Below, in pieces: positions 18,526 to 54,700 of a stretch of 64,000 bases of DNA. Under the pieces are notes generated by a model. It was not told where the DNA came from and ran no database searches. It saw only the letters and a list, made by a program, of their open reading frames with translations. The stretch lies in contig JAIBBJ010000199.1 in NCBI GenBank assembly GCA_019694735.1, positions 16,661 through 80,660 of the forward strand, in the 5' to 3' direction. Origin of the DNA: Gemmatimonadaceae bacterium. Its GTDB lineage: Bacteria; Gemmatimonadota; Gemmatimonadetes; Gemmatimonadales; Gemmatimonadaceae. Position 1 is the stretch's first letter; each line of letters starts with the position of its first letter. The position numbers were made by a program, and so were the translations under genes.

Positions 18526-18579
18526 GCCGGAACCTACCGCGACTGGCGCCGCGCGGCGATGCCGATTACTCCTTCGGCA

Positions 18580-18666
18580 CAGCCGCCAGGGGTACTCCGC
18601 ACGGTGCGGGGTTGAGAAAGTCCCTTGGAACCTGACCCGGTCAACACCGGCGTAGGGAGTGCGGCG
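18580..18666 (+). promoter_or_regulatory. TPP (thiamine pyrophosphate) riboswitch
   Basis: GGGG..TGAGA..CCCTT-GGAACCTGA-CCGG(TCAACA)CCGG-CGTAGGGA core; P1 GCCGC(18582-86)/GCGGC(18661-65); P3 CTCCGCAC/GTGCGGGG; about 120 nt upstream of a TonB receptor. Confidence 0.9.
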
Positions 18667-18788
18667 AGTGTCGCGTCCGCGTTCTCGGGCCGCGTCACCC
18701 GCTCGCCGGGTGCGCGGCCCTTCGTCGTCGAAGGGGGCGTCCCGGCGGGGCCCGTCACTCCGGACACCTTCTCCCCCGAGGCTCCGGC

Positions 18789-33274: not shown

Positions 33275-34429
33275 ATGCGTCGGCCGCTCCGTCCGTCGCC
33301 GCCCCCCCGGTGCGTGCGCGTCCTGCTGGCGGTGCTCGCCGCCGCCGGGTGCGCGCGCGAGCCGCAGGGACCGCCGGCGATCGGCTTCACCTACGCCTTC
33401 CAGGACACGCTGTTCCGCGCCTTCCTCGAGCGGGAGATCGAGCGGGAGCGGCCCGAGGGCGCGGTGCGCATCGTCGTGCGCGGCGCCGACGACGCCGCCG
33501 TCGGCGCGGGTTCACTCGGCGCGGAGGTCCGGTGGGCGACCCGGCTGGCGGCCGACCCGCGCGTCATCGTCTCCGTCGGACCCGACGGCAGCCGTGAGGC
33601 GCTGCAGGTCGCGCCGATCTACCGCGGCGCCGGGGTGCCCGATCTCGTGCCCACCGGCACGAGCCGCCTCCTCGCCGACGCCGGCCCCCAGACCATCGCG
33701 CTGCCGCCGAACGACTCGGTGCAGGCCGAGGTGTTCGCGGCGTTCGCGGACACCGCGCTGCGGGCGCAACGCGTGCGGGTGCTCCACATCCCGGATGAGT
33801 ACGGCGTCGGGCTCGCGCGGTTCGCCGAGGCCGCGCTCCGGCGGCGCGGCATCGCCGTCGGCGCACGCGTCACGGTGCGCCAGGGCGCCGATTGCCGCGT
33901 CGCGGCCGACTCCACCGCGTTCGCGCTCGCCGTCGAGGAGGCCGCGCGCGACGCTGCACCCGACGTCGTCCTCATCGCCACGCGCACCCGCGAAGGGGCC
34001 TGTCTCACCGCGGCGCTGAAGCGGCGGCTGCCGACGGTGCGCATCGTGCTCGGCGACGGCGTGGACGTGAGCGAGGAGTTCCGCACCCGGGCCGCCGCGG
34101 CGGCGGTGGGCGTGCACGCGATGCTCTTCTGGCATGCGAGCGTCGGCCGCCGCGACGCCGCCGACCTCGCGGCCCGGTTCGAGCGCGAGGTCGGCCGGCC
34201 GATGCGCAGCGGCGAGGCGATGTACCTCGACGGCGCCCGGCTCGCTGCCACCGCCATCCGTACCGTGGGCGCCGACCGCGCGGCCGTGCTCGCGTGGCTG
34301 CAGGGCGTGGGCACGCGCACGCCGCCCTACGTCGGGATCACCGGCGAGTTCTCGTTCGCCCCCGGCGCCAGGCGGCCGATCTACATCGGCCGCTTCGACG
34401 GACGCGACTTCACCATCGTCGCCCGATGA
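33275..34429 (+). CDS. LivK-like (branched-chain amino acid type) substrate-binding lipoprotein
   Basis: Lipobox LAAAGC; VGPDGSREAL; PNDSVQA; DEYGVGLARF; DVVLIA; YLDGARL; YVGITGEFSF. Confidence 0.75.
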   Translation: MRRPLRPSPPPRCVRVLLAVLAAAGCAREPQGPPAIGFTYAFQDTLFRAFLEREIERERPEGAVRIVVRGADDAAVGAGSLGAEVRWATRLAADPRVIVSVGPDGSREALQVAPIYRGAGVPDLVPTGTSRLLADAGPQTIALPPNDSVQAEVFAAFADTALRAQRVRVLHIPDEYGVGLARFAEAALRRRGIAVGARVTVRQGADCRVAADSTAFALAVEEAARDAAPDVVLIATRTREGACLTAALKRRLPTVRIVLGDGVDVSEEFRTRAAAAAVGVHAMLFWHASVGRRDAADLAARFEREVGRPMRSGEAMYLDGARLAATAIRTVGADRAAVLAWLQGVGTRTPPYVGITGEFSFAPGARRPIYIGRFDGRDFTIVAR

Positions 34430-37197
34430 GCGCCATCGGTCGCCCGGCGACGCTCCGCGCCCGGCTGATCCTCCTCGGGGCGCTGTCCATCCTGTACGTG
34501 ATCGTGGTCACGGTGCAGCTGGGCAGCGTGCTCGTACCGGCGGCGACCGCGATGGAGGGGCGCGCCCGCGACCAGCTCTCCGAGCACGACCGCATCGCCG
34601 GTGACCTCAAGCGGATGACCGAGGCCCGGCGCGAGGTCGCGCGCTGGGTGCCGCCGATCCGGGATACCGTCGGTCGCGAGTCGCTCGCGGCGATCCGGAC
34701 GGAGATGGACCGGCTGCTCGCCGAGGGCGTGGCGATGCGGGGCGCGCTCGAGCGCGCCGACGTGCCGCTGGAGATGCGGGTGCTCCTCGCCGAGGCGCTC
34801 GAGCAGGAGACGGCGCTCGGCGTCCACGTCGTCGAGGCGATCCGCGCGGTGCAGCTCGGGCGTCCCGCGGACGGCGTCGAGCCGCTCCGCGCCAGCGGTC
34901 TCCGGTCCGACTCGAGCGCCCGGCTCCTCTCGCTCGCGCAGCGCCGCGCCCTGGCCATCGCCGTGGACGAGCAGGGCACCCTCCTGCGCGACCTCGAACG
35001 GCTCGAGCGCTGGGCGAGCCTCTGGGTGGTCGTCGGCCTCGTCCTGTTCGCGTGGGGCGTCTGGATGCTCCGCGACCAGCTCCTGCGCCCGCTCGCCGCG
35101 ATCGAGGGGGCGGTGCGCCGCATCCGTGACGGCGACCTCGACACGGTGCTCGCCGTCCCGCGCGCCGACGAGCTGGGCCGCCTCGCCGACCTCGTGAACG
35201 ACATGCGTGCCATGCTGCGCGCCCGCGCCGAGGACGAGACCGCCCGCCGCGAGGGACTCACCGAGCGCTTCGGGCGCATCCTCGACGAATCGTCCAACGA
35301 GATCGGCATCTTCGACGCCCGGTCGCTCCGGGCCCTCCAGCTCAACCGGGGGGCGCGCGCGCACCTCGGCTACGCCCCCGAGGAGGTCGCGGCGCTGTCG
35401 CTTCCGCAACTGCTCCGGGCGATCGACGTCGGCGTGCTGCACGAACTCGTCGCCCGACTCCGGACGGGGCAGCAGGAGCGGCTCATCCTCACCACCCGCC
35501 AGACGCGGAAGGACGGGAGCGACTATCCGGTCGAGCTGACGGTGCGCCTCTCGCGCGACCGCGACGCCGAACTGCTCATCATCGTCGGCGAGGATGCCGG
35601 GGCGCGCGAGCGGGTGCGTGAGCTCGACCGGGCGCTCCGTGAGCACAGCTACCGCGAGCAGCAGCGCCTCGAGCGCGAGCCGGTGGGGGCGACCCTCGCG
35701 TCGATCGCGTCCATGGCCGCGCAGGCGCTCCAGGTCCCGCAGGTCGGCATCTGGCGCGAGAAGGGCGGCGCGCACCATTGCATCGGGACCAGCGGGCCGC
35801 CGGGGCCCGAGCTCGCCGCGCGCGCGCTCCCCGACGCCCCGTGGCACCTCACCGTGACCGTCCCGGCCACCGCCCGCGGCGACCTCCTGCTCGTGGCCGA
35901 GGCGCCCGCGCCGGACCGCGTGTGGAGCGCCGAGGAGCGCACGTTCCTCCGGGCGGTGGGGGCGCTCGCGGCCCGTGCGGTGGACGCCGACGAGCGGCGC
36001 GCGCTCGAGCAGGCCCTCGCCCGAGCCCAGCGGATGGACTCGATCGGGCAGCTCGCCGGCGGCATCGCGCACGACTTCAACAACATCCTCACCGCCATCC
36101 TCGGCAACCTGGAGATCGCGCGGAGCGGGCTCGATCCCAACGACGGCCGGGCCGGCGCGATCGCCGACGCGGAGGAGGCGGCGCGCCGCGCCGCGGATCT
36201 GACGCGGCAGCTGCTCACCTTCGCGCGGCACCAGCGGGTGGAGCAGCGGGTGATCGACCTGAATGCACTGACCCGCGACGCCGACCGCATGCTGCGCCGG
36301 CTCGTGGGGCCGGAGGTCGAGATCGACACCCGGCTCGACCCGGCGCTGCGCGCGGTGCGGGCCGCGCCCGGCCAGATCGAGCAGGTGCTGCTGAACCTCG
36401 TGGTGAATGCACGGGACGCCACCCCGCGCGGCGGCCGCATCAGCATCGCCACCCGCAACCGACTCGTCGCCGGAACGCCGGGGGACGGGGCGGGGGACGT
36501 GCCGCCGGGCGACTACGTCGAGCTCAGCGTTCGGGACACCGGCAGCGGCATGCCCGCCGACGTGCTCGAGCGCGTGTTCGAGCCCTTCTTCACCACCAAG
36601 GAGCCCGGCGCGGGCACCGGACTCGGACTCGCCGTCTGCTACGGGATCGTCCGCCAGGCCGGCGGCGACATCGTCGTGCAGAGTGCGCCCGGCGAGGGCA
36701 CGGTGTTCCGCGTACTGCTCCCGGCCGTGGATGCGCCGGTGGAGCCGCTCGATCGTGCCCCGGCGCCCGGCCAGGCGCGCGGCAGCGAGACCATCCTGGT
36801 GGCCGAGGACGAGCCCGCGATCCGCACGCTCGTCGCCCGGGCCCTGGGGGCGCGCGGATACCGGGTGCTGCACGCGGCGGACGGCCAGCAGGCGCTCGAT
36901 GTCGCCGCCGGTCTCGCCGAGGCGCCGCACCTCCTGCTCACCGATGTGGTGATGCCGCGGCTGGGCGGCCCCGAGCTCGCCGTCGCCCTCCGGCACCGCT
37001 GGCCCACGCTGCCGGTGCTGCTGATGTCCGGCTACACGGCCGATGCGCTGCGCGAGGGGCGCGAGGTGCCGGAGAGCGCCTTCCTGGCGAAGCCGTTCAC
37101 CGCGGACCAGCTGAGCCTGCGCGTGCGCGAGGTGCTCGACGGGCGCTACCGCCGGGAGACCCCCAGGCCCGGGGCCACGCGCGCGATCCCGGGCTAG
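34426..37197 (+). CDS. Hybrid sensor histidine kinase (2 TM, HAMP, PAS, GAF-like, HisKA, HATPase, REC)
   Basis: HAMP (RADELGRLADLVNDM); PAS (RKDGSDYPVEL); IGQLAGGIAHDFNNIL; QVLLNLVVNARDA; FEPFFTTK; REC ILVAEDE..TDVVMP..MSGY..LAKPF; ATGA overlap with the SBP gene. Confidence 0.9.
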   Translation: MSAIGRPATLRARLILLGALSILYVIVVTVQLGSVLVPAATAMEGRARDQLSEHDRIAGDLKRMTEARREVARWVPPIRDTVGRESLAAIRTEMDRLLAEGVAMRGALERADVPLEMRVLLAEALEQETALGVHVVEAIRAVQLGRPADGVEPLRASGLRSDSSARLLSLAQRRALAIAVDEQGTLLRDLERLERWASLWVVVGLVLFAWGVWMLRDQLLRPLAAIEGAVRRIRDGDLDTVLAVPRADELGRLADLVNDMRAMLRARAEDETARREGLTERFGRILDESSNEIGIFDARSLRALQLNRGARAHLGYAPEEVAALSLPQLLRAIDVGVLHELVARLRTGQQERLILTTRQTRKDGSDYPVELTVRLSRDRDAELLIIVGEDAGARERVRELDRALREHSYREQQRLEREPVGATLASIASMAAQALQVPQVGIWREKGGAHHCIGTSGPPGPELAARALPDAPWHLTVTVPATARGDLLLVAEAPAPDRVWSAEERTFLRAVGALAARAVDADERRALEQALARAQRMDSIGQLAGGIAHDFNNILTAILGNLEIARSGLDPNDGRAGAIADAEEAARRAADLTRQLLTFARHQRVEQRVIDLNALTRDADRMLRRLVGPEVEIDTRLDPALRAVRAAPGQIEQVLLNLVVNARDATPRGGRISIATRNRLVAGTPGDGAGDVPPGDYVELSVRDTGSGMPADVLERVFEPFFTTKEPGAGTGLGLAVCYGIVRQAGGDIVVQSAPGEGTVFRVLLPAVDAPVEPLDRAPAPGQARGSETILVAEDEPAIRTLVARALGARGYRVLHAADGQQALDVAAGLAEAPHLLLTDVVMPRLGGPELAVALRHRWPTLPVLLMSGYTADALREGREVPESAFLAKPFTADQLSLRVREVLDGRYRRETPRPGATRAIPG

Positions 37198-37208
37198 ATT
37201 GCCCTCCC

Positions 37209-38036
37209 ATGGACGCCATCCAGGCCTACTTCAGCACCATCCCGTCGTCGCACCGCGCGCTGATCCTCGCCGGCGGCATCGCCTTCTTCTGGGTCTGGGA
37301 GAGCGCCTTCCCGCTCTTCCGGTTCGAGTACCGGAAGTGGCCCCACGCGCTCGTGAACCTCTTCTTCACCGCCACGACCATCGTCGTGAATTTCGTCCTC
37401 GCGTTCCTGCTCCTGGACGCGAGCGCCTGGGTGACCGGGGCCGGGATCGGCGTGCTCTCGTGGATGGGCGGTGCCCCGTTGTGGCTCCAGGCGCTGGTCG
37501 GGCTGCTGCTGCTCGATCTCGTCGGGGCGTGGCTGGCGCACTTCGTCGAGCACAAGACGCCGGTGCTCTGGCGCCTGCACCTGATCCACCACTCCGACAC
37601 GCACATCGACACGACGACGGCGAACCGGCACCATCCGGGGGAGAGCGTCGTCCGGTTCGCGTTCACCCTGCTCGCGGTGGTGGTCGCCGGGGCGCCGATG
37701 TGGCTGGTCTTCCTGTACCAGAGCCTGAGCGTGGTGCTCAGCCAGTTCAACCACGCCAACATCGCGCTGCCGGCCTGGCTCGACCGCGCGCTGGCGTGGG
37801 TGGTCGTCTCGCCGGACATGCACAAGGTGCACCACCACTACGTGCTGCCCTACACCGATTCGAACTACGGCAACGTCTTCTCGGTGTGGGACCGGGTGTT
37901 CGGCACCTTCATGGATATGGAGCGCGCCCGACTGGTGTATGGCGTGGATACCCACATGGATCCGCGCGAGCACGGGACCGTCGGGGCACTCCTGACGATG
38001 CCCCTGCGACCGGGGACCAAGGGCCCCAAGGGCTGA
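37209..38036 (+). CDS. Sterol desaturase / fatty acid hydroxylase family membrane protein
   Basis: His boxes AHFVEH, HLIHHSD, RHHP, FNHAN, HKVHHH; NYGNVFSVWDRVFGT. Confidence 0.9.
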   Translation: MDAIQAYFSTIPSSHRALILAGGIAFFWVWESAFPLFRFEYRKWPHALVNLFFTATTIVVNFVLAFLLLDASAWVTGAGIGVLSWMGGAPLWLQALVGLLLLDLVGAWLAHFVEHKTPVLWRLHLIHHSDTHIDTTTANRHHPGESVVRFAFTLLAVVVAGAPMWLVFLYQSLSVVLSQFNHANIALPAWLDRALAWVVVSPDMHKVHHHYVLPYTDSNYGNVFSVWDRVFGTFMDMERARLVYGVDTHMDPREHGTVGALLTMPLRPGTKGPKG

Positions 38037-38076
38037 GCAGGCGGCGTCCAACCCAGCGTCGGGTCGGTCGAACCGT

Positions 38077-38094
38077 TGTCAGGCAGAGTTGACG
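38077..38094. promoter_or_regulatory. PpsR/CrtJ-like box (distal): TGTCA-N8-TGACG
   Basis: TGTCAGGCAGAGTTGACG, one mismatch to TGT-N12-ACA and close to TGTCA-N8-TGACA; lies in the bchE upstream region. Confidence 0.5.
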
Positions 38095-38125
38095 GGGGAT
38101 TCTCTGTAGCCTACAGAGAATCCCC
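38095..38125. repeat. Perfect 15-bp inverted repeat with 1-nt spacer
   Basis: GGGGATTCTCTGTAG-C-CTACAGAGAATCCCC, read directly from the sequence. Confidence 0.9.
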
Positions 38126-38184
38126 TACGTCTTTCCCCTCACACGATTTAGGGCACTTCTCCCTACTGCGCTGAGGCGTCACTG

Positions 38185-38228
38185 TGTGCAGGTTCTGTGG
38201 CATTCCGGACTGTCACGCAAACCCGACA
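38185..38228. promoter_or_regulatory. Tandem PpsR/CrtJ-like boxes 8 bp apart upstream of bchE
   Basis: TGTGCAGGTTCTGTGGCA (38185-38202, TGT-N12-GCA), then 8 bp, then TGTCACGCAAACCCGACA (38211-38228, perfect TGT-N12-ACA); 23 bp before the bchE ATG. Confidence 0.65.
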
Positions 38229-38251
38229 CTCGCGATTCGGAGGCCCCTCGC

Positions 38252-39961
38252 ATGCGCATCGTCCTTGTGCACCCCAACTATCACTCGGGTGGGGCGGAGA
38301 TCGCGGGGAACTGGCCGCCGGCGTGGGTCGCCTACATCAGCGGGGCGCTCAAGGCGGCCGGGTTCACGGATGTGACCTTCCTCGATGCGATGACGGACCA
38401 CATCGCGGACGACGCGCTCGCGGCGCAGCTCCTCGCGCTCGACCCGGACGTGGTCATGCTCACGGCGATCACGCCGGCGATCTACAAGGCGCAGGAGACC
38501 GTCCAGCTGGTCCGCCGCGTGGTGCCCCGCGCCACGACGGTGCTCGGCGGCATCCACGGCACCTTCATGTACGGCCAGGTGCTCGGCGAGTGCCCGCAGA
38601 TCGACTACATCGTGCGCGGCGAGGGCGAGGAGGTCGTCGTGAACCTCGTGCGGGCGCTGGCCGAGGGCCGGCTCCCGGCCGAGCGCGAATCGATCCGCGG
38701 GATCGCGTTCCTCAAGGATGGCGCGCCGGTCGCGACCACGCCGCACCCGTCCATCCAGGATCTCGACACGCTGACGCCCGACTGGGACATCCTCAACTGG
38801 GACCGCTACATCTACATCCCGCTCAACACCCGGGTGGCGATCCCCAACTTCGCGCGCGGCTGCCCGTTCACCTGCAGCTTCTGCTCGCAGTGGAAGTTCT
38901 GGCGCCAGTACCGCACGCGCGACCCGAAGAAGTTCGTGGACGAGATCGAGTACCTCGTCACGAAGCACAAGGTCGGCTTCTTCATCCTCGCCGACGAGGA
39001 GCCGACGATCAACCGGAAGAAGTTCGTCGAGCTCTGCAACGAGCTGATCGCGCGCGACCTCGGCATCAAGTGGGGCATCAACACCCGCGTCACCGACATC
39101 CTGCGCGACGAGGAGCTGCTGCCGCTCTACCGCAAGGCGGGGCTCGTGCACGTCTCGCTCGGCACCGAGGCCGCGGCGCAACTCAAGCTCGACCGCTTCA
39201 ACAAGGAGATCAAGGTCGAGCAGTCCAAGAAGGCGATCCAGCTCCTCCGGCAGAACGGCATCGTCACCGAGGCGCAGTTCATCGTCGGGCTCGAGAACGA
39301 GACCCCGGAGACCCTCGAGGAGACGTACCGGATGGCGCAGGACTGGAAGCCGGATCTCGTCAACTGGAACTGCTACACGCCGTGGCCGTTCTCCGACCTC
39401 TTCGCCGACCTCGGCGACAAGGTCGAGGTGCGCGACTACGCGAAGTACAACTTCGTCACGCCGATCATCCAGCCCGACGTGATGACCCGTGACCAGGTGC
39501 TCTTCCACGTCCTGAAGAACTACCGCCGCTTCTACTTCAGGAAGGCGACCGGCGGGTATCTCTGGGACAAGGACCCGTTCCGCCGGAAGTACCTCCGCGG
39601 CTGCCTGAAGGCCTACCTCAAGAGCGCCATGGAGCGCCGCTTCTACGACCTCGGCCGCGTGAACTACTGGGGTGCCGGCAAGGCCGACTGGCAGTTCGAC
39701 GAGTCCAAGATCACCTCGAAGGAGGAGCTGGTGCGCCTCCGCACCAAGCGCGAGATCCAGCACGTGCACGGGCAGTCGCCGCTCGATCCGGCGGTGCCGA
39801 TGGTCTCGGTCGCGGGGCACGAGCTCCCCGCCGACGAGTTCATCGCGCCCAAGCGCTCGACGATGCGCCCCAAGGCGAAGGGCGGCACCGCGGTGATGCC
39901 GGACGAGGACGCCTCGACCGCCGCCGTCGCGGCCGCCAGCGAGGGGATCCGCGCATGCTGA
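38252..39961 (+). CDS. bchE: Mg-protoporphyrin IX monomethyl ester anaerobic oxidative cyclase (B12-dependent radical SAM)
   Basis: Diagnostic N-terminus [28 protein letters not shown]; [18 protein letters not shown] radical SAM motif; [18 protein letters not shown]; GGAGG SD before ATG 38252. Confidence 0.95.
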
Positions 39962-41322
39962 GCCTCGGCGACCTGGCCGAGCCGGTGCCGGCGGACCTGC
40001 TCGCGAAGTACGATGTCGCCGGGCCGCGCTACACGTCGTATCCCACCGTCCCGGCCTGGCGCGACGACTTCGCGCCCGACGACTTCGCGCGCGCCCTCCG
40101 CGCGGCCGGGGCGACCGGGACGCCGGTGGCCCTCTACGGCCACTTCCCGTACTGCGCCGCCAAGTGCTTCTACTGCGGCTGCAACGCCGTCACCACCAGC
40201 CGGCCGGAGGCGATCGACCGCTACCTCGACGACCTCGAGCGGGAGCTCGACTGCGTCGTCGGCGAGCTCGGGCGCTTCCACCGGACGGCGCAGCTGCACT
40301 GGGGCGGGGGCACCCCGAATCACCTCGACGACCGCCAGCTCGAACGCGCGTTCCGCCTCTACGCCGACCGCTTCCGCTTCACCGACGAGGTCGAGCTGAG
40401 CCTCGAGGCCGACCCGCGACTCGTCTCGCGGGAGCAGCTCCGGACCCTGCGCGCCCTCGGCTTCACGCGCATCTCGTTCGGGGTGCAGGACCTCGACCGC
40501 AACGTCCAGGAGGCGATCGGCCGCCTGCAGTCGCCGGCCCTCGTGCGCGACGTGTGCGAGAGCGCGCGCGAGGCCGGCTTCACCGGGCTCAACATCGACC
40601 TCATCTACGGCCTGCCGCGGCAGACGCCGGAGTCCTTCGCGCGCACCATCGACGAGGCCCTGCGCCTCGGGCCCGACCGGGTCGCCTGCTTCGGCTACGC
40701 GCACCTGCCGTCGTCGCGGCCGCACCAGCGTGTCATCGAGGAGGCCGAGCTGCCCGACGCGCCCGAACGGGCGGCCCTGTTCCAGCTCGCGGTGCGCCGC
40801 TTCACCGAGGCGGGGTACGCCTGGATCGGGCTCGACCACTTCGCGAAGGCCGACGACCCGCTCGCGGTCGCGCAGCGCGAGGGGCGGCTCCACCGGAACT
40901 TCATGGGCTATACCACGATGCCGGCCGCACATCTCGTCGGCACCGGGATGAGCGCCATCTCCGACGTCGGCGGCGCCTTCGCGCAGAACGAGGCGCGGCT
41001 CGGTCCGTGGCGCGAGCGGGTGGACGCCGGGCGGCTGAGCACGGTGCGCGGCCTGTGGCTCTCCGACGATGACCGCGCGCGGAAGCACGCCATCCAGCAG
41101 CTGATGTGCAACCTCGAGCTCGCCTTCGACGACATCCCGCCCGGTGTCGACGACCTGCGGGCGCGCTTCGCGCCGTTCGAGGACGACGGTTTCGTCGAGT
41201 TCGGTGTGGACCGCGTGCAGGTCACGCCGCGCGGCCGGTTCTTCATCCGCAACCTCTGCATGGAACTCGACGCCTACCTGCCGACCCAGCAGGGACAGGG
41301 GCGCTTCTCGAGGACGGTGTGA
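39955..41322 (+). CDS. hemN: Oxygen-independent coproporphyrinogen III oxidase
   Basis: [13 protein letters not shown]; [15 protein letters not shown]; HWGGGTP; RISFGVQD; [10 protein letters not shown]; IGLDHFA; LHRNFMGYT; 7-bp overlap with bchE. Confidence 0.92.
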
Positions 41323-41918
41323 CCGCGTCGGCCGGCCGGATCGGCCCGAACGCGATCATCCAGACGGCGGCCGCACTGCGCGCGCGCGTGGGCGAGGTCC
41401 ACGCGCAGGCGCTGGTCGTCGGCGCCACCGGACGCGGCCTCGGCGCGCTCCCGACCGAGATGGTGGACGAGGCCGAGGTGAACCGGCTCGTGCGCGCGCT
41501 CGCCCACGACCTCGACCCGGCACTCTTCGAGGCCGTCCTCCGCGACGCGGGACGGCGGACCGCCGACTACCTGATGGCGCACCGGATCCCGCGCCTCGCA
41601 CAGCGGCTCATGGGCCTGCTGCCGCCGGCGCTCGCGCTCCGGGTCCTGCTCGCAGGCATCATGCGGCACACCTGGACGTTCGCCGGGTCGGCCGCCGTGA
41701 CGCTGAGGCGACCGCGCGGCGCGCCGCTCACCCTCGAGATGCGGCACTGCCCCATGTGCCGAGGGATGCGCACGGGGACCGCGACCTGTCACTTCTACGC
41801 CGCGACGCTGGAGCACCTGCTCACGACGCTCGTCACCCCGGCGGCACGGGTGGTCGAGACGAGTTGCGAGGCGACGGGCGGCCCCGCCTGCGCGTTCGCG
41901 CTTCGGCTCCGCGGCTAG
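41319..41918 (+). CDS. bchJ: BchJ (V4R-domain bacteriochlorophyll biosynthesis protein)
   Basis: RIGPNAIIQ; GRRTADYLMAHRIP; RHTWTFAGS; CPMC..CHFYAATLEHL..ETSCEATGGPAC; GTG start overlaps the hemN stop (GTGA). Confidence 0.9.
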   Translation: MTASAGRIGPNAIIQTAAALRARVGEVHAQALVVGATGRGLGALPTEMVDEAEVNRLVRALAHDLDPALFEAVLRDAGRRTADYLMAHRIPRLAQRLMGLLPPALALRVLLAGIMRHTWTFAGSAAVTLRRPRGAPLTLEMRHCPMCRGMRTGTATCHFYAATLEHLLTTLVTPAARVVETSCEATGGPACAFALRLRG

Positions 41919-41990
41919 GCTGCCGCAGCGAGGCGCCGAAGCCGGGAGCCGAAGCTAGGCGCCACGGCGCCGGACGCGCCCCCCGGGCCC

Positions 41991-42614
41991 TCAGCCGGTC
42001 GGTCCGTCGCCGGCTGCCGTGCCCCCGTGACGCGCCAGCCGCGCCATCAGGTGGCGCCGCACGTCCGGCCACTCCGCGCGGAGGATGCTGTACATCACGG
42101 TGTCGCGGGCCGTGCCGTCCTTCCGGGCCTGGTGGTGCCGCAGGATGCCGTCGCGCTGTGCGCCCAGCGCCTCGATCGCGCGCTGCGAACGCGCATTGAA
42201 GCGGTCCGTGCGCAGGCCGACCACGGCGCAGCCGAGCGCGTCGAAGGCGTGCGTCAGCAGAAGGAGCTTGCACGCGGTGTTCACGTGGCTCCGCTGCCAA
42301 CGGGCCGCGTACCAGGTATAGCCGATCTCGACGCGGTCGATCGCCGCCTCGATGTCGTGGAAGCGCGTCGTCCCGACGATGGTCCCGTCGCCGGCGAGGC
42401 GGACGACCCAGGGCCACATCCGCCCGTCCCGCTGGCCCGCGAGCGCGGTCTCGACGTACGCGGCCGCCTCCTCCGGGCGCGGCACGGACGTGAACCAGAG
42501 CTCCCAGAGCGCGCCGTCGCGCGCCGCCTCGGCCAGGGGCTCCGCGTGCATCGGCGTCAGTGGCTCGAGGCGCACGCCATGCCCCTCGAGGGTCACCGGT
42601 GTCAGATGGATCAT
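41991..42614 (-). CDS. GNAT (RimJ/RimL-like) N-acetyltransferase
   Basis: VTLEGHGVRLEPL; VGTTRF; VEIGYTWYAARWQRSHVNTACKLLLL; NARSQRAIEALGA; RDTVMYSILRAEWP. Confidence 0.9.
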   Translation of the reverse strand: MIHLTPVTLEGHGVRLEPLTPMHAEPLAEAARDGALWELWFTSVPRPEEAAAYVETALAGQRDGRMWPWVVRLAGDGTIVGTTRFHDIEAAIDRVEIGYTWYAARWQRSHVNTACKLLLLTHAFDALGCAVVGLRTDRFNARSQRAIEALGAQRDGILRHHQARKDGTARDTVMYSILRAEWPDVRRHLMARLARHGGTAAGDGPTG

Positions 42615-42728
42615 GGTCCGAATGTAATCCAGGTCACGCGCGCGCGGCGCCGCGCCCGCCGCGTGACGCAGCGCACGAAACCTCGTGCGTGCTCGCGCGT
42701 ATCTTCGAGTGGACCTCACCCCACACCC

Positions 42729-43808
42729 ATGCACATGACCCGCGCCCGTTCCGTGTTCGTGCTCGCCGCGCTCGTCGCGGCGGCCGCCTGCTCCGACTCC
42801 ACCGGGCCCTTGCCGCCCCTCGACGAGGCCGCGCTCGTCGGCGACATGAACGCCGCCGCGTCCGCCACGGACGCCCCCGCGGCCGCCAGTCTCGCGGTCC
42901 TGGGCGACCAGATGAACTTCGCCCTCGGCGGCGGGGTCGCCGTCGTCGCGGCAGAGGCCGTGCCCGCGCTGCTCAAGGACCCGCTCGCCCTCGTGAAGGA
43001 CGGCGCGCTCGCCAAGCGCCTCGCCCCGACCACCGGCGGCACGACCGCCAGCGTCATCCCGCAGGCCGCGCTCGGCAAGACGTTCGTGTACTCGACCGAC
43101 TCCGGCCGCTACGTCTTGAGCGCACGGACCGGAGCGCCCGCGAACGGCGTCCGGTTCGTGCTCTACGCGGTGGACCCCCTCTTCCAGGAGATCGTGCTGC
43201 CGCTCACCGAGGTGGGCTACGCCGACCTCACGCGGACGGTCGTGAACGACAATGCGCGCGCCCGCGTCGAGGTCTGGACGACGGGTGGCGAGACCAAGGT
43301 GCTCGACTACGTCGCGATCGTCGGCGGCACGCTCGTCGCCCCGGCGGTGACCGTCGAGGGCTTCTCGCGGAATGGCGCCGACTCGCTCGCCTTCCGGCTG
43401 GTGACGCGCGCGTCGCTCGCGAATGAGAGCGTCAGCATCAACTGGCGCGCGGCCGTGCCGTCGCGCGACCTCGTGACCGTCGTCGAGCAGGTGCTCACCG
43501 GCGGCGAGGTCGGGTCCGTCGCCTTCGACGGCAAGATCGCGAGCGCCAATGGGGTCGTGACCATGAAGGGCACGCTCCAGCAGCAGTCCGGCGGCACGAT
43601 CACGGTCAAGGTGAACGGCGAGACCTTCGCGCGCATCGTGCTCGCGACGCCGAGCGCCGAACCGGAGATCACGGGCCCGACCGGCGAGCCGCTGACCGAA
43701 CAGCAGGTCGTCATGCTCCAGCAGATCTTCGCCTGGTTCCAGGGCGCCTATGCCCTCTTCTTCGGCCTCCTGGCCCCGGTCTCCGGCCTGCTCGACCTCG
43801 CCTTCTGA
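42729..43808 (+). CDS. Hypothetical lipoprotein
   Basis: Lipobox LVAAAAC-SDSTGP; beta-rich mature region; clean ORF followed by a strong hairpin. Confidence 0.75.
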   Translation: MHMTRARSVFVLAALVAAAACSDSTGPLPPLDEAALVGDMNAAASATDAPAAASLAVLGDQMNFALGGGVAVVAAEAVPALLKDPLALVKDGALAKRLAPTTGGTTASVIPQAALGKTFVYSTDSGRYVLSARTGAPANGVRFVLYAVDPLFQEIVLPLTEVGYADLTRTVVNDNARARVEVWTTGGETKVLDYVAIVGGTLVAPAVTVEGFSRNGADSLAFRLVTRASLANESVSINWRAAVPSRDLVTVVEQVLTGGEVGSVAFDGKIASANGVVTMKGTLQQQSGGTITVKVNGETFARIVLATPSAEPEITGPTGEPLTEQQVVMLQQIFAWFQGAYALFFGLLAPVSGLLDLAF

Positions 43809-45766: not shown

Positions 45767-48700
45767 TCAGGGATAACCGCGGGCCCAGTGGTTGGTCAGG
45801 TTGCCGGTGTAGGCGGTGGAGAGGATCGGATAGACGGCGGGCAACGCCGTCCCCCACGTGTGGCTGATGTAGTTCACCGTGGTGGGGCTGCCGGTGTCCT
45901 GTGTCCGCGTGATGGTGTTCTGGAAGTTGACCATCAGCCAGTACGTGCCGGCGGCGACCGTCACGTTGCCCGTCGTGAACTCGACCTGGCCGGTCGTGCT
46001 GATGGTCCCGACGGCCTGCGCGACGAGCACGCTGGGCCGGCCGGCGGCATCGGTGTAGAGCCCGATCCGCGCGCCGCCGGTGCCGCCGGCGACGTTCAGC
46101 CCGAGGTGCGTGAGCGTGATCGGCTGCGAGATCGTGATCTGCTGGCCGATCAGGTAGTTCGGGCTCCACGGGCTCGTCCCGGCGAAGGCCGTCGGGTAGC
46201 CGTAGCGCACCACGTACGAGGCCTTCACGGAGACGTTGGAGAACGAGCTGTAGCCCTGCAGCATGATGAACCAGTCACCGGCCGCCGGGTTGTCGATGAC
46301 GCACTCCTCGGCGTTGCCGCCGATGTACGGCCGGCAGTTGAAGAGCCCGAGGGTCGCCGCGAACCCTTGGCGCACGTACAGGTCGGCGTCGCCGGTGCCG
46401 CCCGAGATGGTGACGCGCAGCTGCGGCGTGCCGGCGGGCACGTTGATGACGTAGTGGCGCTGCGCGGACGCGGTGTCCGTGATGCCGGCGATCGTCTGCC
46501 CGTTCGACATCGGGACCGGCATCCACACGCCGGCTCGCACCGTCGTGTCGGAGAGGGTGCCGTTGGAGACCGCGCGGACGGACCACGAGGCGCTGATCCC
46601 GGCCGGCACCGAGGGATAGGTGTACGTCGTGACGTCCGGTCCCACCGTGCCGATCACGCTGACCGGGGTGCACCCGACGCCGCCGCACGCGAGGATCTGG
46701 TAGCCGGTCTCGATCGTGCTGTTGTCGGACCAGGTGACGTCGACCCGCCCGCGGTCCACCACCGTCGCCTGGATGCCGCTGGGCGCGACGAGCACCGTGG
46801 ACGCATCCCCCGACACCGGGCCGCCCGCGGAGAATCCGATGCCGCTCCGGAACGTCCGCACGCGGTAGCGATAGATGCTGTTCGGCACCACCGAGCTGTC
46901 GACGTGCGCGGTGACGTCGACGCCCAGCACCGCGGTGATGCTGAAGTTCGAGCAGCCGGTGCCCGCGCAGCGCTCGATGACGTTGAACGTCTCGTTGTCG
47001 GCGTTGTCGGCCCACGTGACGGTCACGCGGTTGACCGTGTTCGGCGTCACCACGAGCGCGCTCGGGTCGGCCGGCTGCCGCGTGTCCGCCGCCGCCGTGT
47101 TGCTGTACGGGGTCACGCCCACCGCATTGAAGGCGCGGATCCGGTAGACGTATGACCCGTTGAGCACGAGGCCGGTGTTCGCGAAGCCGGTCACGTCCGG
47201 ACCCGTGGTCGCGATCTCCTCGAAGTCGGTGCATCCCGCGCTGCTGCACCGTTCGATGCGGTAGCCGGACTCGTCACTGGCGTTGTCCACCCAGCCCAGG
47301 TTGATCTGGACCGAGTTGATCATCGTCGCCGTCAGCCCCGTCGGGGCCGCCGGCAGCGTGGTCGCCGCGACCGCGGTGGCCGTGTAGGCCGAGTTCCCCA
47401 CCGGGTTCGTCGCGACGATCCGGAACTGGTACGTGTTGTTGAAGGCGAGGTCGTTCACCTGGAAGGCCGCGACGTCCGGCCCCACGCTCGCGAACGGCGC
47501 GAAGTCGACGCATCCGCCGCCCGTGCAGCGCTCGAGGATGAACCCGGTCTCGTTCCCCGAGTTGTCGAGCCAGGTGAGCGACGCCTGGGTCTCCGAGAGG
47601 GTGGTGGCCGCGAGGTTGAGCGGGACGTTCGGCGCATCGAGGAGCTGCAGCACCTCGCTGCTGTTGTCCGACGAGCCCGCCGCGTTGGTGGCGCGGACGC
47701 GGTAGTTGTAGAACTCGCCGGTGGTGAGGCCGGCGTCCTCATAGAAGGTCGAGTTCGCGGGCACGCTGCTCACCGGGGCGAAGTCGGCGCACTCCTTCCC
47801 GAGGCAGCGCTCGATGACGAACGCATCCTCGTTGTTCGCGTTGTCGTTCCAGTCCACCCGGATCGCGGTCGGCGACGTGATGACGAGACCGATGATCTCC
47901 GGGCGGTCGGGCAGCAGGGTCGAGCCCACGGCGAGCGGGGAGGCGCCGGAGATGCCGGCGGCGTTCCGCGCGTAGACGCGGTACGCGTACTGGCGCCCGA
48001 GGTCCACGCGGGCGTCGGCGTAGACCGTCGTCGCCGCGTCCACGGAATCGCGCAGCGCCACCCCGGTGTTGCAGGCCGGGTCGTCGCAGCGTTCGATCAC
48101 GAACCAGATCGGTGCCCCGCCGGCGGACGCGTTCCAGGTCACGTCGATCTGGGTCGCCGTGATGGTCGTCGCCACGACGTCGGTCGGGTCGCCGGGGATG
48201 GAGGTCGTGGCCCCCGCCTCCGCCGTGTAGGCCGAGGCGCCGGCGGCGTTCACCGCCCGCACCCGGTACGTGAAGGATTCATTCGGCGCGATCGGCGCGT
48301 CGGTGAACGCGGTCGTGCCCGGCGGCAGCTGGGCCTGCTCGGTGAAGTCGCTGCACCCGACGCCGGCGCACCGCTCCACGCGGAACGACTCCTCGTTGTC
48401 CGACGCGTCGGCCCAGGCGAGGTCGATGCGCGTGGCGCTCACGGTCGTCGCCGTCAGTCCGGTCGGGGCCGCGGGCAGGTCGGTGTCGAGCTCCACGATC
48501 GCCGAGTAGCCCGAGCTGCCGGCGGCGTTGCTCGCCCGGACCCGGTACCGGTACGTGGTGTTCGCGACCGTCGAGACGTCGCTGAAGCTGACGGTGTTCG
48601 GCGGTTGGAACCCGATCTGGGCGAAGGAGGTGCACCCGGTGCCGGTGCAGCGCTCCACGAAGTAGGCGAGCTCGTTGTCCGCGGCGTCGACCCACGCGAG

Positions 48701-51700
48701 GTCGATCCGGGTGGCGCTGATCACGGTCGCCGCGAGGCCCGTCGGGTCCGCCGGCGTGTTCGTGCCCGCCGCGGCCACGTTCGACGCGCCCGAGACGCCG
48801 GAGGCGTTCTGCGCGCGGACGCGGTACAGGTACGCGATCCCCGCCGGCAGGCCGGTGTCGCTGTAGTTGGTGCTGTTCGCGGCGATCGTCGCGATCGTCG
48901 CGAACGTGCAGGCCGAGGCCTGGCAGCGCTCGATGACGTACGCGGTCTCGTCGGTCGCGTTGTCGGTCCAGGCGAGGTCGATCCGGGTCGCGTTGACCGT
49001 CGTCGCCGTCAGCGCCGTCGGGATCCCCGGCACGTTCGTCACGGCCGAGACGATGGCGCTGTAGCCCGACGGGCCGGCGCCGTTCACCGCGCGGACCCGG
49101 TAGCGGAAGGTGCTGCTGCCCGCGAGGCCGGCGTCGCTGTATTCCGTCGCGCCGGCCGCCGTGGTGGCGATGAGCGCGAAGTCCGTGCAGCTGCCGCCGG
49201 CGCACCGCTCGATCTGATAGCCGGTCTCGTTGTCCGCGTTGTCCGACCACGCGAGGTCGATCCGGGTGCCCGACACCGCGGTCGCGGTCGCGCCGCTCGG
49301 GTCGGCCGGCAGGATCGTCGTCGCGGTCGCGGCGTTCGACCACCCCGAGCTGCCCTCCGAGAAGGCCCGCACGCGGTAGGTGTACGACGTCGCGGCGGCG
49401 ATCGGCGTGTCGCTGTAGCTCGTGGCGTTCGCGGCGAGCGTCGCGAGCAGCGTGAAGCTCGAGCAGCCCGCGCCCGTGCAGCGCTCCACGCGGTAGCCCG
49501 TCTCGTCAGAGGCGTTGTCGGTCCACGCGAGGTCGATCCGGGTCGTCGAGAGCGGGCCCGCGACGAGGTTCGTCGGGTCGAGCGGCACGACGGTGCTGCC
49601 GTCGGCGACGTCGGAGTAGGCCGAGTTCGCGACGCCGTTGTACGACCGCACCCGGTACCGGTAGGTCGTGCCGATGGTCAGCGTCGAGTCGGCGTGCGTC
49701 GTCACGTTGGCCGCGACCGTCGCAACCTCGGTGAACGTCGTGCACCCGACGCCCGCGCACCGCTCGATCCGGAAGCCCGTCTCGTTCGAGGCCGGGTCCG
49801 TCCAGGTCAGGTCGATGCGGGTGCCCAGCACCGTCACGGCGTCGAGTGCCGTCGGGGCGGCCGGGGCGAACGTGTTCGGGCTCACCGTCGCCGTGTACGC
49901 CGAGCTGCCGGCGGCGTTCACCGCGCGGACGCGATAGCGGTAGAAGGTGTTGCTCGCGAGACCGCCGTCCACGTAACCGGTGGCGCCGGGGGCCAGCTGG
50001 ATGAGTTGCGTGAAGCTCGTGCAGGACACGCCGGTGCAGCGCTCGACGCGGTAGCTGACCTCGTTCGTCGCGTTGTCGGTCCACGCCAGCGTGATCTCGG
50101 TGGGGGCCGTCACGACGGCCGAGAGGCCCGTCGGGTCCGCCGGCAGGAGGGTGCTCGCCTCGACCGGCCCGTCATAGCCGGCCGCGCCCGCGTTGTTGAA
50201 GGCCCGGATGCGGTACCGGTAGGCGTTGCCCACCGCGACCGACAGGTCGGTGTACGTGGTGGCGTCCACCGGCGCGGTGCCGATCTCGGCGAAGTCGCTG
50301 CAGCCGCTGCCGGTGCACCGTTCGATCGCGACGCCGTTCTCGTTGGTGGCGTTGTCGGTCCAGCTCAGGTCGATGCGGGTCCCCGTCGTCGTCACCGCGG
50401 CGAGGCCCGTCGTCGCGGCCGGCCGCAGCGTGTTCGCCGTCGCCGTCGCGGAATACGCCGACGCGCCCACGCGGTTCACCGCGCGCACGCGGTATCCGTA
50501 GGTCTGGTCGAGCGCACCCGTCGAATCGACGAGCGAGTTGGTGTTCGGCGCGAGCGAGTCCAGCCGCGCGAAGGTCGTGCAGCCGACCCCCGTGCAGCGC
50601 TCCACCTCGAGCCCGGTCTCGTTGGTCGCCCCCTCCGTCCAGCTCAGCGCGATCCGCGTGCCCGACTGCAGCACGGCGGTCAGGCCGGTCGGCGCGGTCG
50701 GCGTCGTCACCGAGGCGGTCGCCGTGTTCGAGAAGCGCGACGACCCGTTCGCGTTGATCGCCCGCACGCGGTAGGTCATCACGTTGCCGAGCGCCAGCCC
50801 GCCGTCCACGTACTGCGCGACGTTGGTGCCCACCAGGATGAGGTCGCTGAAGTCGCCCTCGCCGCAGGGCAGGGCGGTGCAGCGCTGGATGACGAACCCG
50901 TCCTCGTTCGCCGAGTTGTCCGTCCAGGCGACGGTGATCGCGGTCGGCGAGGTCGCCGTCGCCGTGAGGCTCGTCGGGTCGGCCGGCACGTCGGTCGTCG
51001 CATCGACGACCGCCGAGAAGGCCGAGGCGCCCGCGCCGTTCAGCGCGCGCACCCGGTAGCGGTACGTGAGGTTCGGCGTCAGGCTCGCGTCGCTGTACGC
51101 CTGCGTGTCCGGGGCCAGGCTGTCCACGCGCGCGAACGCCGTGCAGCCGGCGCCGGTGCAGCGCTGCAGCTCGTACGCGGTCTCGTTCGTGGCGTTGTCG
51201 GTCCACGTGAGGTCCACCTGGGTCGCCGAGACCGTCGTCGCCGCCAGGGCCGACGGCGCGGACGGCAGCACCGTGGTCGCCGTGGCGATGTTCGAGGGGG
51301 CCGACGTGCCGATCAGGTTGGCCGCCACGACGCGGTAGCTGTACGACTGCCCGGCGGCGACCGTGCTGTCGATGTGGCTCGCGACGCCGGCTCCGACCGA
51401 GACGAGGTCCGTGAAGCCGCCGCAGGCGACGCCCGTGCACCGCTGGATCGTGAAGACCGTCTCGTTGTCCGAGGCGTCGGCCCACGCGAGCGCGATCCGC
51501 GTGGTCGAGGTCGCCTGCGCGGTCAGCGACGCGGGCGCGGCCGGTGTCGCCAGCGTCGTCACGGCGACCGCGGTGTACGCGGACGCGCCGGCGCCGTTGA
51601 CCGCCCGCAGCCGATACGCGTACGTCAGGCCCGGCGTGAGGCCGGCATCCCCGGCCCCGGTCGCGTTCGCCGCCGCGGTGATCACGAGCGCGAAGTCGCT

Positions 51701-54700
51701 GCAGCCGACGCCGGCGCACCGCTCGATCTCGAATCCGGTCTCGTCGCCCGAGTTGTCGGTCCACGAGATCGTCGTGCCCGTCGCGCTCGCCGGCACCACC
51801 GTGAACGCCGACGGGATCGCCGGGAGGTTCGTCGAGGCCGCCGCCGTGTTGGAGTAGGCCGACGTGCCGGCCAGGTTCCGGGCCCGCACGCGGTAGGTGT
51901 AGGTCTGCGACGCCGTGAGCCCCTCGTTCGCGTACGCCGTCACGTTCGCGCCCACCGAGTCGAGCAGGGCGAACGTGGTGCAGCCCGCGCCCTGGCAGCG
52001 CTCGACGTAGAAGCCGGTCTCGTTCGTCGCGTTGTCGGTCCAGCTCAGGTCCACGCGCGTGTCCGACTGCGTCGCCGCCGCGAGGCCGGTCGGGGCGCTC
52101 GGCAGCTCCGTCGAGGCCGTCGCCGTCGCGGTCGGGGTCGAGAGGCCCGAGAAGTTGCGCGCGAGGACGCGGTACCCGTACACGTTGCCCACGGTCGCCG
52201 TCAGGTCGGTGTACGCGGCGATGCCGCCCGCCACCGAGTCGATGACCGTGAACGTCGCGCAGCCGGCGCCGGTGCAGCGCTCGACCAGCACGCGCGTCGC
52301 ATCGAGCGCGTTGTTGGTCCACGCCAGCGCCACCGAGGTGCCGGACGTCGTGGTCGCCGTCAGCGCGCTCGGCGCGTTCGGGAGCGTCGTCGAGACCGAC
52401 GCGACGTTGGAGGCCGCGCCGGCGCCGACGATGTTGAAGACGACGACGCGGTAGTCGTACGACGTGGACGGGGCGACCGTGGAGTCGATGAACGACGTCA
52501 CGTTCGGCCCGACGGTGTCCAGCGGCGCGTACGTGCACCCGGTGCCCGCGCACCGCTGGACGATCACCCCCGACTCGTTCGCCGCGTTGTCGGTCCACGA
52601 GAGCGTCACGCGCGGGCCGGCCGAGAGCGTCGCCGCCAGCGCGGACGCCGGGTTCGGCGCCCGCGTGTCGCCGATCGCGATCGCCGTGTAGCCCGACGCG
52701 CCCGCGGCGTTGTACGCCCGGACGCGGTACCGGTACGCGGTGCCCGCGGCCACGCTGGCGTCCGCGTAGCCGACGATGTTCGCGCCGACGGTGCCGATCT
52801 CGACGAAGTCCGTGCAGGCCTCGCCGGTGCAGCGCTCGATGCGGAAGCCGAGCTCCGTCACGGCGCCGTCCGTCCAGGCCAGGCTCACCTGCGTCGGGCC
52901 GCTCGTCGTCGCGACGAGGTCGGTCGGGTCGCCCGGCGCGGCCGTGGCGACCGTGGCCACGTTCGACGCCGCCGACGGGCCGGTCGCGTTGACCGCCCGC
53001 ACGCGCCACCGATACGTCGTGCCGGCCGTCAGGCCGGTGTTCTGGTAGGTCACCACGTTCGAGTCGAGCGTCGCGAGCGTCGTGAAGTTGACGCAGCCCA
53101 CGCCCGCGCACCGCTCGACGACCTGCGCCGTCTCGTTCGTCGCGTTGTCCACCCACGACAGGTCCACCTGGGTCGTCGAGATCAGCGTCGCCGTGAGCGT
53201 CGACGGCGCCGCCGCGCTCCGCGTGCTCGCGACCGCATCGCTCGTGTAGGCGGAGTTGCCGACCGCGTTGCGGGCGCGCACGCGGTAGCGATAGTCGCCC
53301 TCCGCGGCCACCGTCTGGTCGTTGTACGTGTTCGTCCCGGCGGTGACGAAGCCCACCTCGGTGAACGCGGTGCACCCGACGCCGCTGCAGCGCTCGATGC
53401 GGAAGGTCGTCTCGTTGTCCGAGGCGTCCGTCCACGCGAGGTTGACCTGCGTCCCCGAGATCGTCGCGGCCGAGAGGCCGGCGGGCGGGGCGGGGAGGAG
53501 CACGGCGGCGAGCACCGGGCCCGCCTCGACCGAGGTGCCGGCCACGCCGACCGCCTTCACGCGGTACCGGTAGCTCGAGCCGACGACCACCGAGTCGTCG
53601 GTGAAGCTCGTGGCGCCGGCCGCCAGCGTCGCGCGCAGGCCGAAGCCCGAGCAGCCGGTGCCGGTGCAGCGCTCGACCTGGAAGCCCGTCTCGTTGCTCG
53701 TCGTGTCGGCCCAGCTCAGGTCCACGCGCGAGGCCGAGACCACGCTGGCGGCGAAGCTCGCCGGCACGCCCGGCGGGCGCGTGTTCGCGTTCGCCGTGTT
53801 CGTCGCCGCCGCCGATGCCCCGGCGACGTTCACCGAGCGCACGCGGTAGCTGTAGTAGGTGTCCGCGATGACCGTGACGTCGCTGTACGCCGTCGCGTTC
53901 GCCGCCGTGGTGTCGATCGCCGCGAACGTCGTGCACCCCTGGCCCGTGCAGCGCTCGATCACGAAGCCCGTCTCGGTCGCCGAGTTGTCGGCCCACGAGA
54001 GGTCGATCTGCGTCGCCGAGATCGTCGTCGCCGCGAGGGCGGTCGGGGCGGCCGGCCGGATGGTGTTCGCGGTCGCGGTGGCGCTGTAGGCCGAGGGCGC
54101 GACGTTGTTCGTCGCCCGGACACGGAACACGTAGGTGTTGTCGAGCGCGAGGCCCGTCGCGCTGGCGGTCGTCGTCCCCGCCGGCAGCGTCGCGATGGTC
54201 GTGAAGTCGGCGTCGCCCGCGCAGGTGCCGTTGTTGCAGCGCTGGACCTCGAACGCCGTCTCGTTGTTCGAGTTGTCCGACCACGCGAGGTCGATCCGCG
54301 AGCCGGAGATCGTCGTCGCCGTCAGCGCGCTCGGGGCCGTCGGGCCGGCGAGCACGACGTCCACCGGGCCGGCGTACGCCGAGTTGCCGATGGCGTTGCG
54401 CGCGCGGACGCGGTAGCGGTACGTCTGGCCGGCGGTCAGCCCGGCGTCGCTGAAGCTCGTGTCGTTCGCCGCGCCCGCCGTCAGCTCGGCGAAGTCCGTG
54501 CAGGCCGCGCCCTGGCAGCGCTCGATCCGGTACGAGGTCTCGTTGTCCGCCGCGTCGGCCCAGCGCACGCGCGCCGCCGTGGCCGACGTCGCGAGCACCG
54601 CGAGCCCCGTCGGGGCCGCGGGCAGCCGCTTCACCGTGAGGATCAGCTCATAGTGGCCCACCGAGCTCCCGGTGCGCCCCACGCGCACCAGCACGTGCTC

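Follow-up and report, generated by a model that had tools for sequence, protein, structure and literature searches.

A 64,000-nucleotide stretch of a Gemmatimonadaceae genome (the window; positions 16,661-80,660 of contig JAIBBJ010000199.1, hereafter C119, which is 92.5 kb long) carries bchE, hemN and bchJ as three consecutive open reading frames (ORFs) on the plus strand at positions 38252-41918, each overlapping the next gene. These genes form a real, correctly read operon. We put a probability of about 0.85 on its being a translationally coupled accessory operon for low-oxygen pigment synthesis in a phototrophic Gemmatimonadaceae host. Such an operon would supply oxygen-independent versions of both O2-requiring steps toward bacteriochlorophyll a: HemN would convert coproporphyrinogen III to protoporphyrinogen IX, and BchE would close the isocyclic ring of Mg-protoporphyrin monomethyl ester by radical S-adenosylmethionine (SAM) chemistry and B12, with BchJ as an accessory protein. 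The oxygen-dependent counterparts AcsF and HemF sit with the photosynthesis cluster on another contig, and because they are present there the operon is best read as an accessory module that would keep pigment synthesis going at low or zero oxygen, which fits a sludge or wastewater habitat of fluctuating oxygen. The PpsR encoded in the cluster probably represses the operon in oxic conditions via two boxes that overlap the promoter region.

The bchE-hemN-bchJ operon

The features of the operon are as follows.

38239..38243, plus strand: Shine-Dalgarno sequence GGAGG of bchE (from reading the sequence)
38252..39961, plus strand: bchE, B12-dependent radical-SAM (anaerobic) Mg-protoporphyrin IX monomethyl ester cyclase, 569 amino acids
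39955..41322, plus strand: hemN, oxygen-independent coproporphyrinogen III oxidase, 455 amino acids
41319..41918, plus strand: bchJ, V4R-domain protein, 199 amino acids, with a GTG start (from reading the sequence)

All three products score far over the cut-offs of their equivalog hidden Markov models, which rules out chance matches. BchE reaches 777 bits against TIGR02026 (cut-off 481), matching model positions 1-494 of 497, and contains an N-terminal B12-binding domain (PF02310, 90 bits), a Radical_SAM domain (PF04055, 93 bits) and the radical SAM motif CPFTCSFC (CxxxCxxC) at residues 204-211. HemN reaches 483 bits against TIGR00538 (cut-off 325); the HemW model gives it 129 bits, under the HemW cut-off of 205, and the equivalog separates it from HemW, HemZ and ChuW. 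Its CxxxCxxCxC motif, including the fourth cysteine, lies at residues 67-76 and GGGTP at 117; the Radical_SAM domain is over its cut-off, and HemN_C, at 22.4 bits, is slightly under the Pfam gathering score of 24. BchJ scores 166 bits against TIGR02019 (cut-off 74), with a C-terminal V4R domain (PF02830, 48 bits).

The bchE gene starts at the ATG at 38252, with its Shine-Dalgarno sequence 8 nt before, and the true start of bchJ is the GTG at 41319, giving 199 amino acids as against 270 for the maximal ORF. The overlap of the bchE stop with the hemN start reads ATGCTGA, and that of the hemN stop with the bchJ start reads GTGA; these overlaps indicate translational coupling of the three genes, each of which occurs once in the host genome. 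The first-pass annotation, made from the window alone, had described three overlapping genes with diagnostic motifs, and its coordinates, the equivalog scores, the motifs and the overlaps all bear this out.

Host genome, habitat and distribution of the three genes

The host assembly is a metagenome-assembled genome (MAG) of 3.52 Mb in 226 contigs, estimated at 97% completeness and 2% contamination. A second contig, C80, holds a photosynthesis cluster with puhE, bchD, bchI, bchC, bchX, bchO, pufL, pufM, puhA, puhB and puhC, as well as acsF, bchL, bchH, bchB, bchN, ppsR (TIGR02040, 297 bits) and bchP. Beside it lie hemA, hemE, hemF, a gene for a HemY-type protoporphyrinogen oxidase, hemC, hemB and hemL. 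The first-pass annotation had proposed a search of the rest of the genome, and pufLM, bchHDI, bchLNB, acsF and ppsR all turned up on C80. It had also left a choice between a phototroph and a relic of one; the full cluster, with reaction-centre (pufLM) and Mg-chelatase (bchHDI) genes, establishes the first and does away with the second. Having a type-2 reaction centre, a full pathway and both acsF+hemF and bchE+hemN, the genome belongs to the ‘microaerophilic’ chlorophototrophic Gemmatimonadota.

Over approximately 43-92 kb of C80 (loci L005-L007) the cluster adjoins genes for almost the entire haem trunk pathway, the two forming a pigment ‘super-cluster’ that has the oxygen-dependent enzyme versions; a bacteriophytochrome-like gene (295 bits, under the BphP cut-off) is located between the cluster and the haem genes. 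AcsF and HemF are thus encoded in or beside the cluster, and oxygen-independent BchE and HemN are housed in a separate operon. Across its 92.5 kb, C119 encodes no homologue of any host photosynthesis-cluster protein, in agreement with the initial view that the module stands apart from photosynthesis genes. B12 uptake, which had likewise been proposed as a check, is encoded on a third contig (C60:19332-24243, locus L092), where a cobalamin riboswitch is followed by genes for a BtuF-like binding protein, a FecCD permease and a TonB-dependent receptor, so that the B12 needed by BchE can be imported. A SelB-like elongation factor gene is situated just downstream of these uptake genes.

Several lines of evidence agree with the probable Gemmatimonadota host named in the first-pass annotation. 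Among 185,579 species genomes the best matches to BchE are all Gemmatimonadota MAGs (73-88% identity, the copy at locus L008 being 88% identical), and the best HemN and BchJ matches are all Gemmatimonadota. Synteny with a 198-kb contig of an ‘uncultured Gemmatimonas sp.’ extends over approximately 20 kb around the module, with neighbouring genes 55-93% identical. The GC content is 0.731 for C119, 0.718 for C80 and 0.729 for the genome.

The operon is nearly full (72-98% of sampled words) in about 20 metagenomes (X1-X20) from activated sludge, wastewater and biofilm, generated in many studies, and the host appears to be common in sludge. Five short contigs from a sludge run labelled metatranscriptomic match bchE and hemN at 99-100% identity; they provide weak evidence for expression of the operon, with DNA carry-over possible.

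The distribution of the three genes was determined in an evenly sampled set of 151 genomes of the family and in 401 high-quality genomes of the phylum; the resulting co-distribution counts are not phylogenetically independent. Reaction-centre genes are present in 16 of the 151 family genomes, and the six genomes with BchE are all among those 16 (Fisher p = 5e-7). Within the 16 phototrophs, true HemN occurs in 6/6 genomes with BchE vs. 1/10 without it, and BchJ in 5/6 vs. 1/10, the exception with BchE being an 81%-complete genome. In the phylum sample BchJ was found in 9/11 BchE-containing genomes vs. 2/390 of the remainder, and 16 of a further 19 Gemmatimonadota genomes with BchE have pufLM. 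Taken together, bchE, hemN and bchJ clearly behave as an accessory unit limited to a subset of phototrophs. The tie of BchJ to BchE and HemN suggested in the first-pass annotation is reflected in this co-variation of BchJ and HemN with BchE in phototrophic relatives.

Gene order varies. At least 11 other Gemmatimonadota loci have bchE-hemN-bchJ, some others in the phylum and two Falsiroseomonas have bchE-bchJ-hemN, Longimicrobiales have bchJ-bchE-hemN, and Nostocales have hemN-bchE; most of the proteobacterial loci retrieved have bchE directly followed by bchJ. A closed 4.7-Mb relative (G279) has bchE, a 1.5-kb gap the size of hemN, and bchJ in the same orientation as in the window. One closed relative has the genes scattered, bchE lying 450 kb from bchJ, with pufLM 2.5 Mb away.

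Three MAGs have an intact-looking bchE with no pufL or pufM found (G154, locus L011; G159, L016; G168, L028); these could be incomplete bins or cases of genuine orphan bchE, and at L011 and L016 neither hemN nor bchJ adjoins bchE. In the genus to which the window belongs, bchE and bchJ are present in two of nine sampled genomes, including the window's own (G000 and G417); those without the genes include G051, G110, G242, G386, G404 and G506. The two that were checked, G051 and G110, have no reaction-centre genes, indicating that phototrophy is patchy even at the genus level. An empty-site test of the junction between the two genes that flank the operon (for a fatty-acid hydroxylase and a GNAT protein, below) in G051 and G110 recovered a hydroxylase orthologue of 73-74% identity and otherwise non-syntenic flanking genes, so an insertion boundary cannot be defined.

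Upstream region, candidate regulation and flanking genes

PpsR/CrtJ sites were taken to be TGT-N12-ACA palindromes in a promoter region, typically paired. The region before bchE contains the following elements.

38086..38135, plus strand: hairpin with 15-nt perfect arms, -29 kcal/mol, z = -5.4 vs. shuffles
38185..38202, no strand assigned: PpsR/CrtJ-like box (TGT-N12-GCA, a single mismatch), separated by exactly 8 bp from the perfect box that follows (from reading the sequence)
38211..38228, no strand assigned: perfect PpsR/CrtJ-type palindrome TGTCACGCAAACCCGACA (TGTC-N10-GACA), 23 nt before the bchE ATG (from a scan)

An 8-bp gap also separates two perfect boxes in the host photosynthesis cluster, at C80:47137 and 47163 in the intergenic region upstream of bchI, and single boxes on C80 are located before ppsR, after ppsR and at C80:91911. 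Genome-wide there are 26 TGTC-N10-GACA sites, five of which fall in the photosynthesis cluster of approximately 50 kb. Exact boxes also occur upstream of bchE at loci L010, L013, L054, L018, L019 and L020. The bchC promoter of Rhodobacter capsulatus has a tandem CrtJ/PpsR operator made of two TGT-N12-ACA palindromes 8 bp apart. The window resembles it in having two boxes 8 bp apart upstream of bchE and ppsR in the genome; it differs in that one box has GCA for ACA and the host is not a proteobacterium. From these candidate boxes we infer that PpsR would couple the remote operon to the redox control of the cluster.

The hairpin, a palindrome of 15+15 nt (GGGGATTCTCTGTAG C CTACAGAGAATCCCC) unique in the genome, is probably a terminator of the hydroxylase gene, though without a T-tract, or an insulator; the missing T-tract explains why the terminator scan did not call it. 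It contains TGT-N5-ACA and could also be a protein-binding site. As the hairpin follows the hydroxylase gene, the operon probably has its own promoter within 38136-38251. Scans of 37900-42200 for sigma-70 promoters and intrinsic terminators returned nothing, a result that is uninformative for a non-proteobacterium of 73% GC.

Control of bchE by a riboswitch was dropped: Rfam gave no cobalamin or other riboswitch upstream of bchE at the gathering threshold, and none at E<=5 on 37900-38400. An element, ‘TTCC(C)CTACTGCGC’, is conserved approximately 80-100 nt upstream of bchE (38140-38175 in the window; also at L008, L009 and L017) and may be a promoter or the site of a second regulator; looser ‘GGGATTCYCCTAC’ copies stand upstream of bchE in other relatives, with no enrichment elsewhere in the genome. 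In several relatives the stretch before bchE has a repeated ‘TTCCCCTAC’-like motif, which was set aside, being enriched neither on the photosynthesis contig nor elsewhere.

The genes on either side of the operon, named in the first-pass annotation as a sterol desaturase and a GNAT protein, have Pfam matches that agree with those names.

37203..38036 (start uncertain), plus strand: gene of the fatty-acid hydroxylase/sterol-desaturase family (PF04116, 89 bits)
41991..42734, minus strand: GNAT acetyltransferase gene, convergent (PF13302, 74 bits)

The hydroxylase has the motifs HKVHHH and WDRVFGT, its gene ends at 38036, and it is kept upstream of bchE at L008, L013 and L054; the GNAT gene has the same downstream position at L008 and L013. 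Two genes upstream of bchE, at 33892-37197 (plus strand), is a gene for a hybrid sensor kinase (HAMP-PAS-HisKA-HATPase-REC), syntenic at L008 with an identity of only 55%; a role for it as oxygen or redox sensor of the operon is pure speculation. Elsewhere in the window a TPP riboswitch (62 bits, over the gathering score) lies at 18578-18676, just upstream of an ORF at 18789-20834 (plus strand), and positions 45767-55690 (minus strand) encode a giant protein of 3307 amino acids with many fibronectin type III repeats and a C-terminal PPC domain.

Origin, alternative explanations and relation to known systems

GC at the third codon position (GC3) is 0.97 for bchE, 0.96 for hemN and 0.94 for bchJ, like that of other host genes. 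A dip in GC at 38-40 kb had raised the possibility of recent transfer, which was dismissed because the lower GC lies in the first and second codon positions of a conserved enzyme whose GC3 is 0.97. Native GC3, together with a module and flanks common to relatives, indicates that the operon is not a recent import. The ‘bolt-on cassette’ of the first-pass annotation thus stands insofar as the module is accessory and at a separate locus, and falls insofar as a recent gain was implied.

Phylogenies of BchE and HemN, which the same annotation had called for, place the window BchE (tree of the 80 best loci, drawn from L008-L091) in an all-Gemmatimonadales clade of 16 rows (clade A; SH-aLRT 98). The Gemmatimonas-like BchE (clade B), to which the window protein is 66-69% identical, groups with Roseiflexus, cyanobacterial and some proteobacterial sequences, and the BchE of Longimicrobiales groups with Myxococcota. 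A tree constrained to unite clades A and B is worse by 102 log-likelihood units and is rejected (AU p = 1e-5, for groups named after the tree was seen). In the HemN and BchJ trees the Gemmatimonadales sequences stay close together, and Gemmatimonadota HemN and BchJ form their own groups, separate from Proteobacteria. On these trees, Gemmatimonadales BchE comprises two non-sister lineages and HemN and BchJ do not split in this way. At locus L010 BchE is of clade A but HemN and BchJ are clade-B-like, a combination that, within limited sampling, hints at a replacement of bchE inside a conserved module.

Some points weigh against the low-oxygen accessory operon. The host is a MAG of 226 contigs and the linkage of C119 with C80 rests on binning; the same co-occurrence of bchE with phototrophy is seen in independent MAGs and closed genomes. 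The co-distribution counts, as said, lack phylogenetic independence, and the RNA evidence comes from the five short contigs described above, whose source run may include DNA. The TGTC-N10-GACA sites show no genome-wide enrichment (26 vs. 21 expected), so that only their placement is telling, and the closest relative, at L008, has no perfect box, both of its boxes having one mismatch each.

Three other explanations were considered. The genes could be an orphan relic, without a present role in pigment synthesis and left from an anaerobic phototrophic ancestor or a transfer. The module is missing in 10 of the 16 phototrophic relatives and is hence dispensable for phototrophy as such, and the three BchE-bearing MAGs described above show no reaction-centre genes. 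In this genome, however, the ORFs are unbroken, have every catalytic motif and score far over the equivalog cut-offs, codon usage is native, the genes are translationally coupled and kept as a unit in many species, and the host has a full photosynthesis apparatus and candidate regulator boxes at the operon; we consider a relic very improbable. Even less probable is mis-binning, in which the module would come from a proteobacterial or other sludge phototroph that is not the owner of the C80 cluster. This would suit a MAG in 226 contigs, and of the eight other genomes sampled in the genus, seven are without the three genes, two of them also lacking reaction centres. Against it stand the Gemmatimonadota identity of the best BchE, HemN and BchJ matches, the roughly 20 kb of flanking synteny with the 198-kb Gemmatimonas MAG contig (including a housekeeping-type gene at 93% identity) and the agreement in GC between C119, C80 and the genome. 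Closed single-contig relatives, moreover, hold bchE with pufLM, or bchE-hemN-bchJ. The origin in a proteobacterial phototroph that the first-pass annotation had named as a way for its proposal to fail is therefore not what the matches, the synteny and the GC indicate.

The remaining alternative concerns how the two sets of enzymes are used: BchE could be the main cyclase with AcsF as back-up, or both could work together, the two loci reflecting history and not an oxic/anoxic division. Purple bacteria with both cyclases (Rubrivivax, Rhodobacter) differ in which one is dominant, and activated sludge is often oxygen-limited. AcsF, HemF and the HemY-type oxidase, on the other hand, are encoded in or beside the cluster, BchE and HemN are accessory and patchy, and a published comparison ties bchE and hemN to microaerophily in Gemmatimonas (PMC7844134). 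We regard this alternative, too, as very improbable, and use of the operon when oxygen is scarce as the probable one.

The arrangement in the window has a close published counterpart. Zeng et al. 2021 (PMC7844134) report each pair of alternative enzymes in Gemmatimonas phototrophica, acsF with bchE and hemF with hemN, and in strain AP64 the genes GEMMAAP_RS19165-19180 (hemN, bchJ, bchE and hemJ) are co-regulated outside the photosynthesis gene cluster (PMC9862903). The window host is of the same phylum and family, likewise has the three genes clustered off the photosynthesis cluster and also has acsF and hemF. It differs in having no adjacent hemJ in the window, in the flanks (fatty-acid hydroxylase and GNAT), in its clade-A BchE as opposed to the Gemmatimonas-like clade B, and in its source (activated sludge) and GC content (73%). 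With the same extra-cluster locus already published for G. phototrophica, the window is another, ordinary instance of a described arrangement. The aerobic G. groenlandica is without bchE and hemN, and absence of bchE has been proposed as a marker of aerobic phototrophic Gemmatimonadetes, with BphP likewise proposed to mark the aerobic type (PMC7844134). The bacteriophytochrome-like gene beside the host cluster means that this published microaerophilic/aerobic dichotomy is not clean in this host.

Outside the phylum, bchEJ is a long-known unit in Rhodobacter, and the pair is present or absent together in Bradyrhizobium and aerobic anoxygenic phototrophs; it lies inside the cluster in Rhodobacter and in Bradyrhizobium PGC1, and outside it in Dinoroseobacter shibae (PMC3176799, PMC10569730, PMC6052148). 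Like the window genes, purple-bacterial bchE and bchJ come and go as a unit, and that pair is missing from many aerobic phototrophs; in the window hemN is placed between bchE and bchJ and all three are translationally coupled. In heterocystous cyanobacteria (Nostoc and Calothrix; L043, L049, L053, L057 and L062) a BchE homologue also adjoins a HemN homologue, pairing oxygen-independent radical SAM steps; there the order is reversed, bchJ is not present, HemN is only 38% identical and the pathway makes chlorophyll.

A chaperone or carrier role has been suggested for BchJ (PMC7242693). The relatives provide natural ‘knock-outs’: BchJ is missing in nine of the ten phototrophs without BchE and kept in five of the six with it, and bchJ is usually in one translationally coupled unit with bchE and hemN. 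Both observations favor a BchJ that assists specifically in the oxygen-independent branch, such as by carrying porphyrin to BchE or taking over its product, and that would be dispensable with AcsF, a reading that we put forward tentatively and rate below even odds.

The operon marks a Gemmatimonadaceae population that is abundant in activated sludge as phototrophic and probably capable of bacteriochlorophyll synthesis at low oxygen, and it adds one species to the known ‘microaerophilic’ type. The data go slightly past published work in three respects: the joint gain and loss of the three genes in phototrophic Gemmatimonadaceae, which supports a functional tie of BchJ to the anaerobic cyclase; the tandem PpsR-type boxes that the extra-cluster operon shares with the cluster; and the two non-sister lineages of Gemmatimonadales BchE, a division that HemN and BchJ do not follow. 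None of them alters current understanding; of most interest is what the comparison of genomes says in favor of a functional link between BchJ and the oxygen-independent branch.

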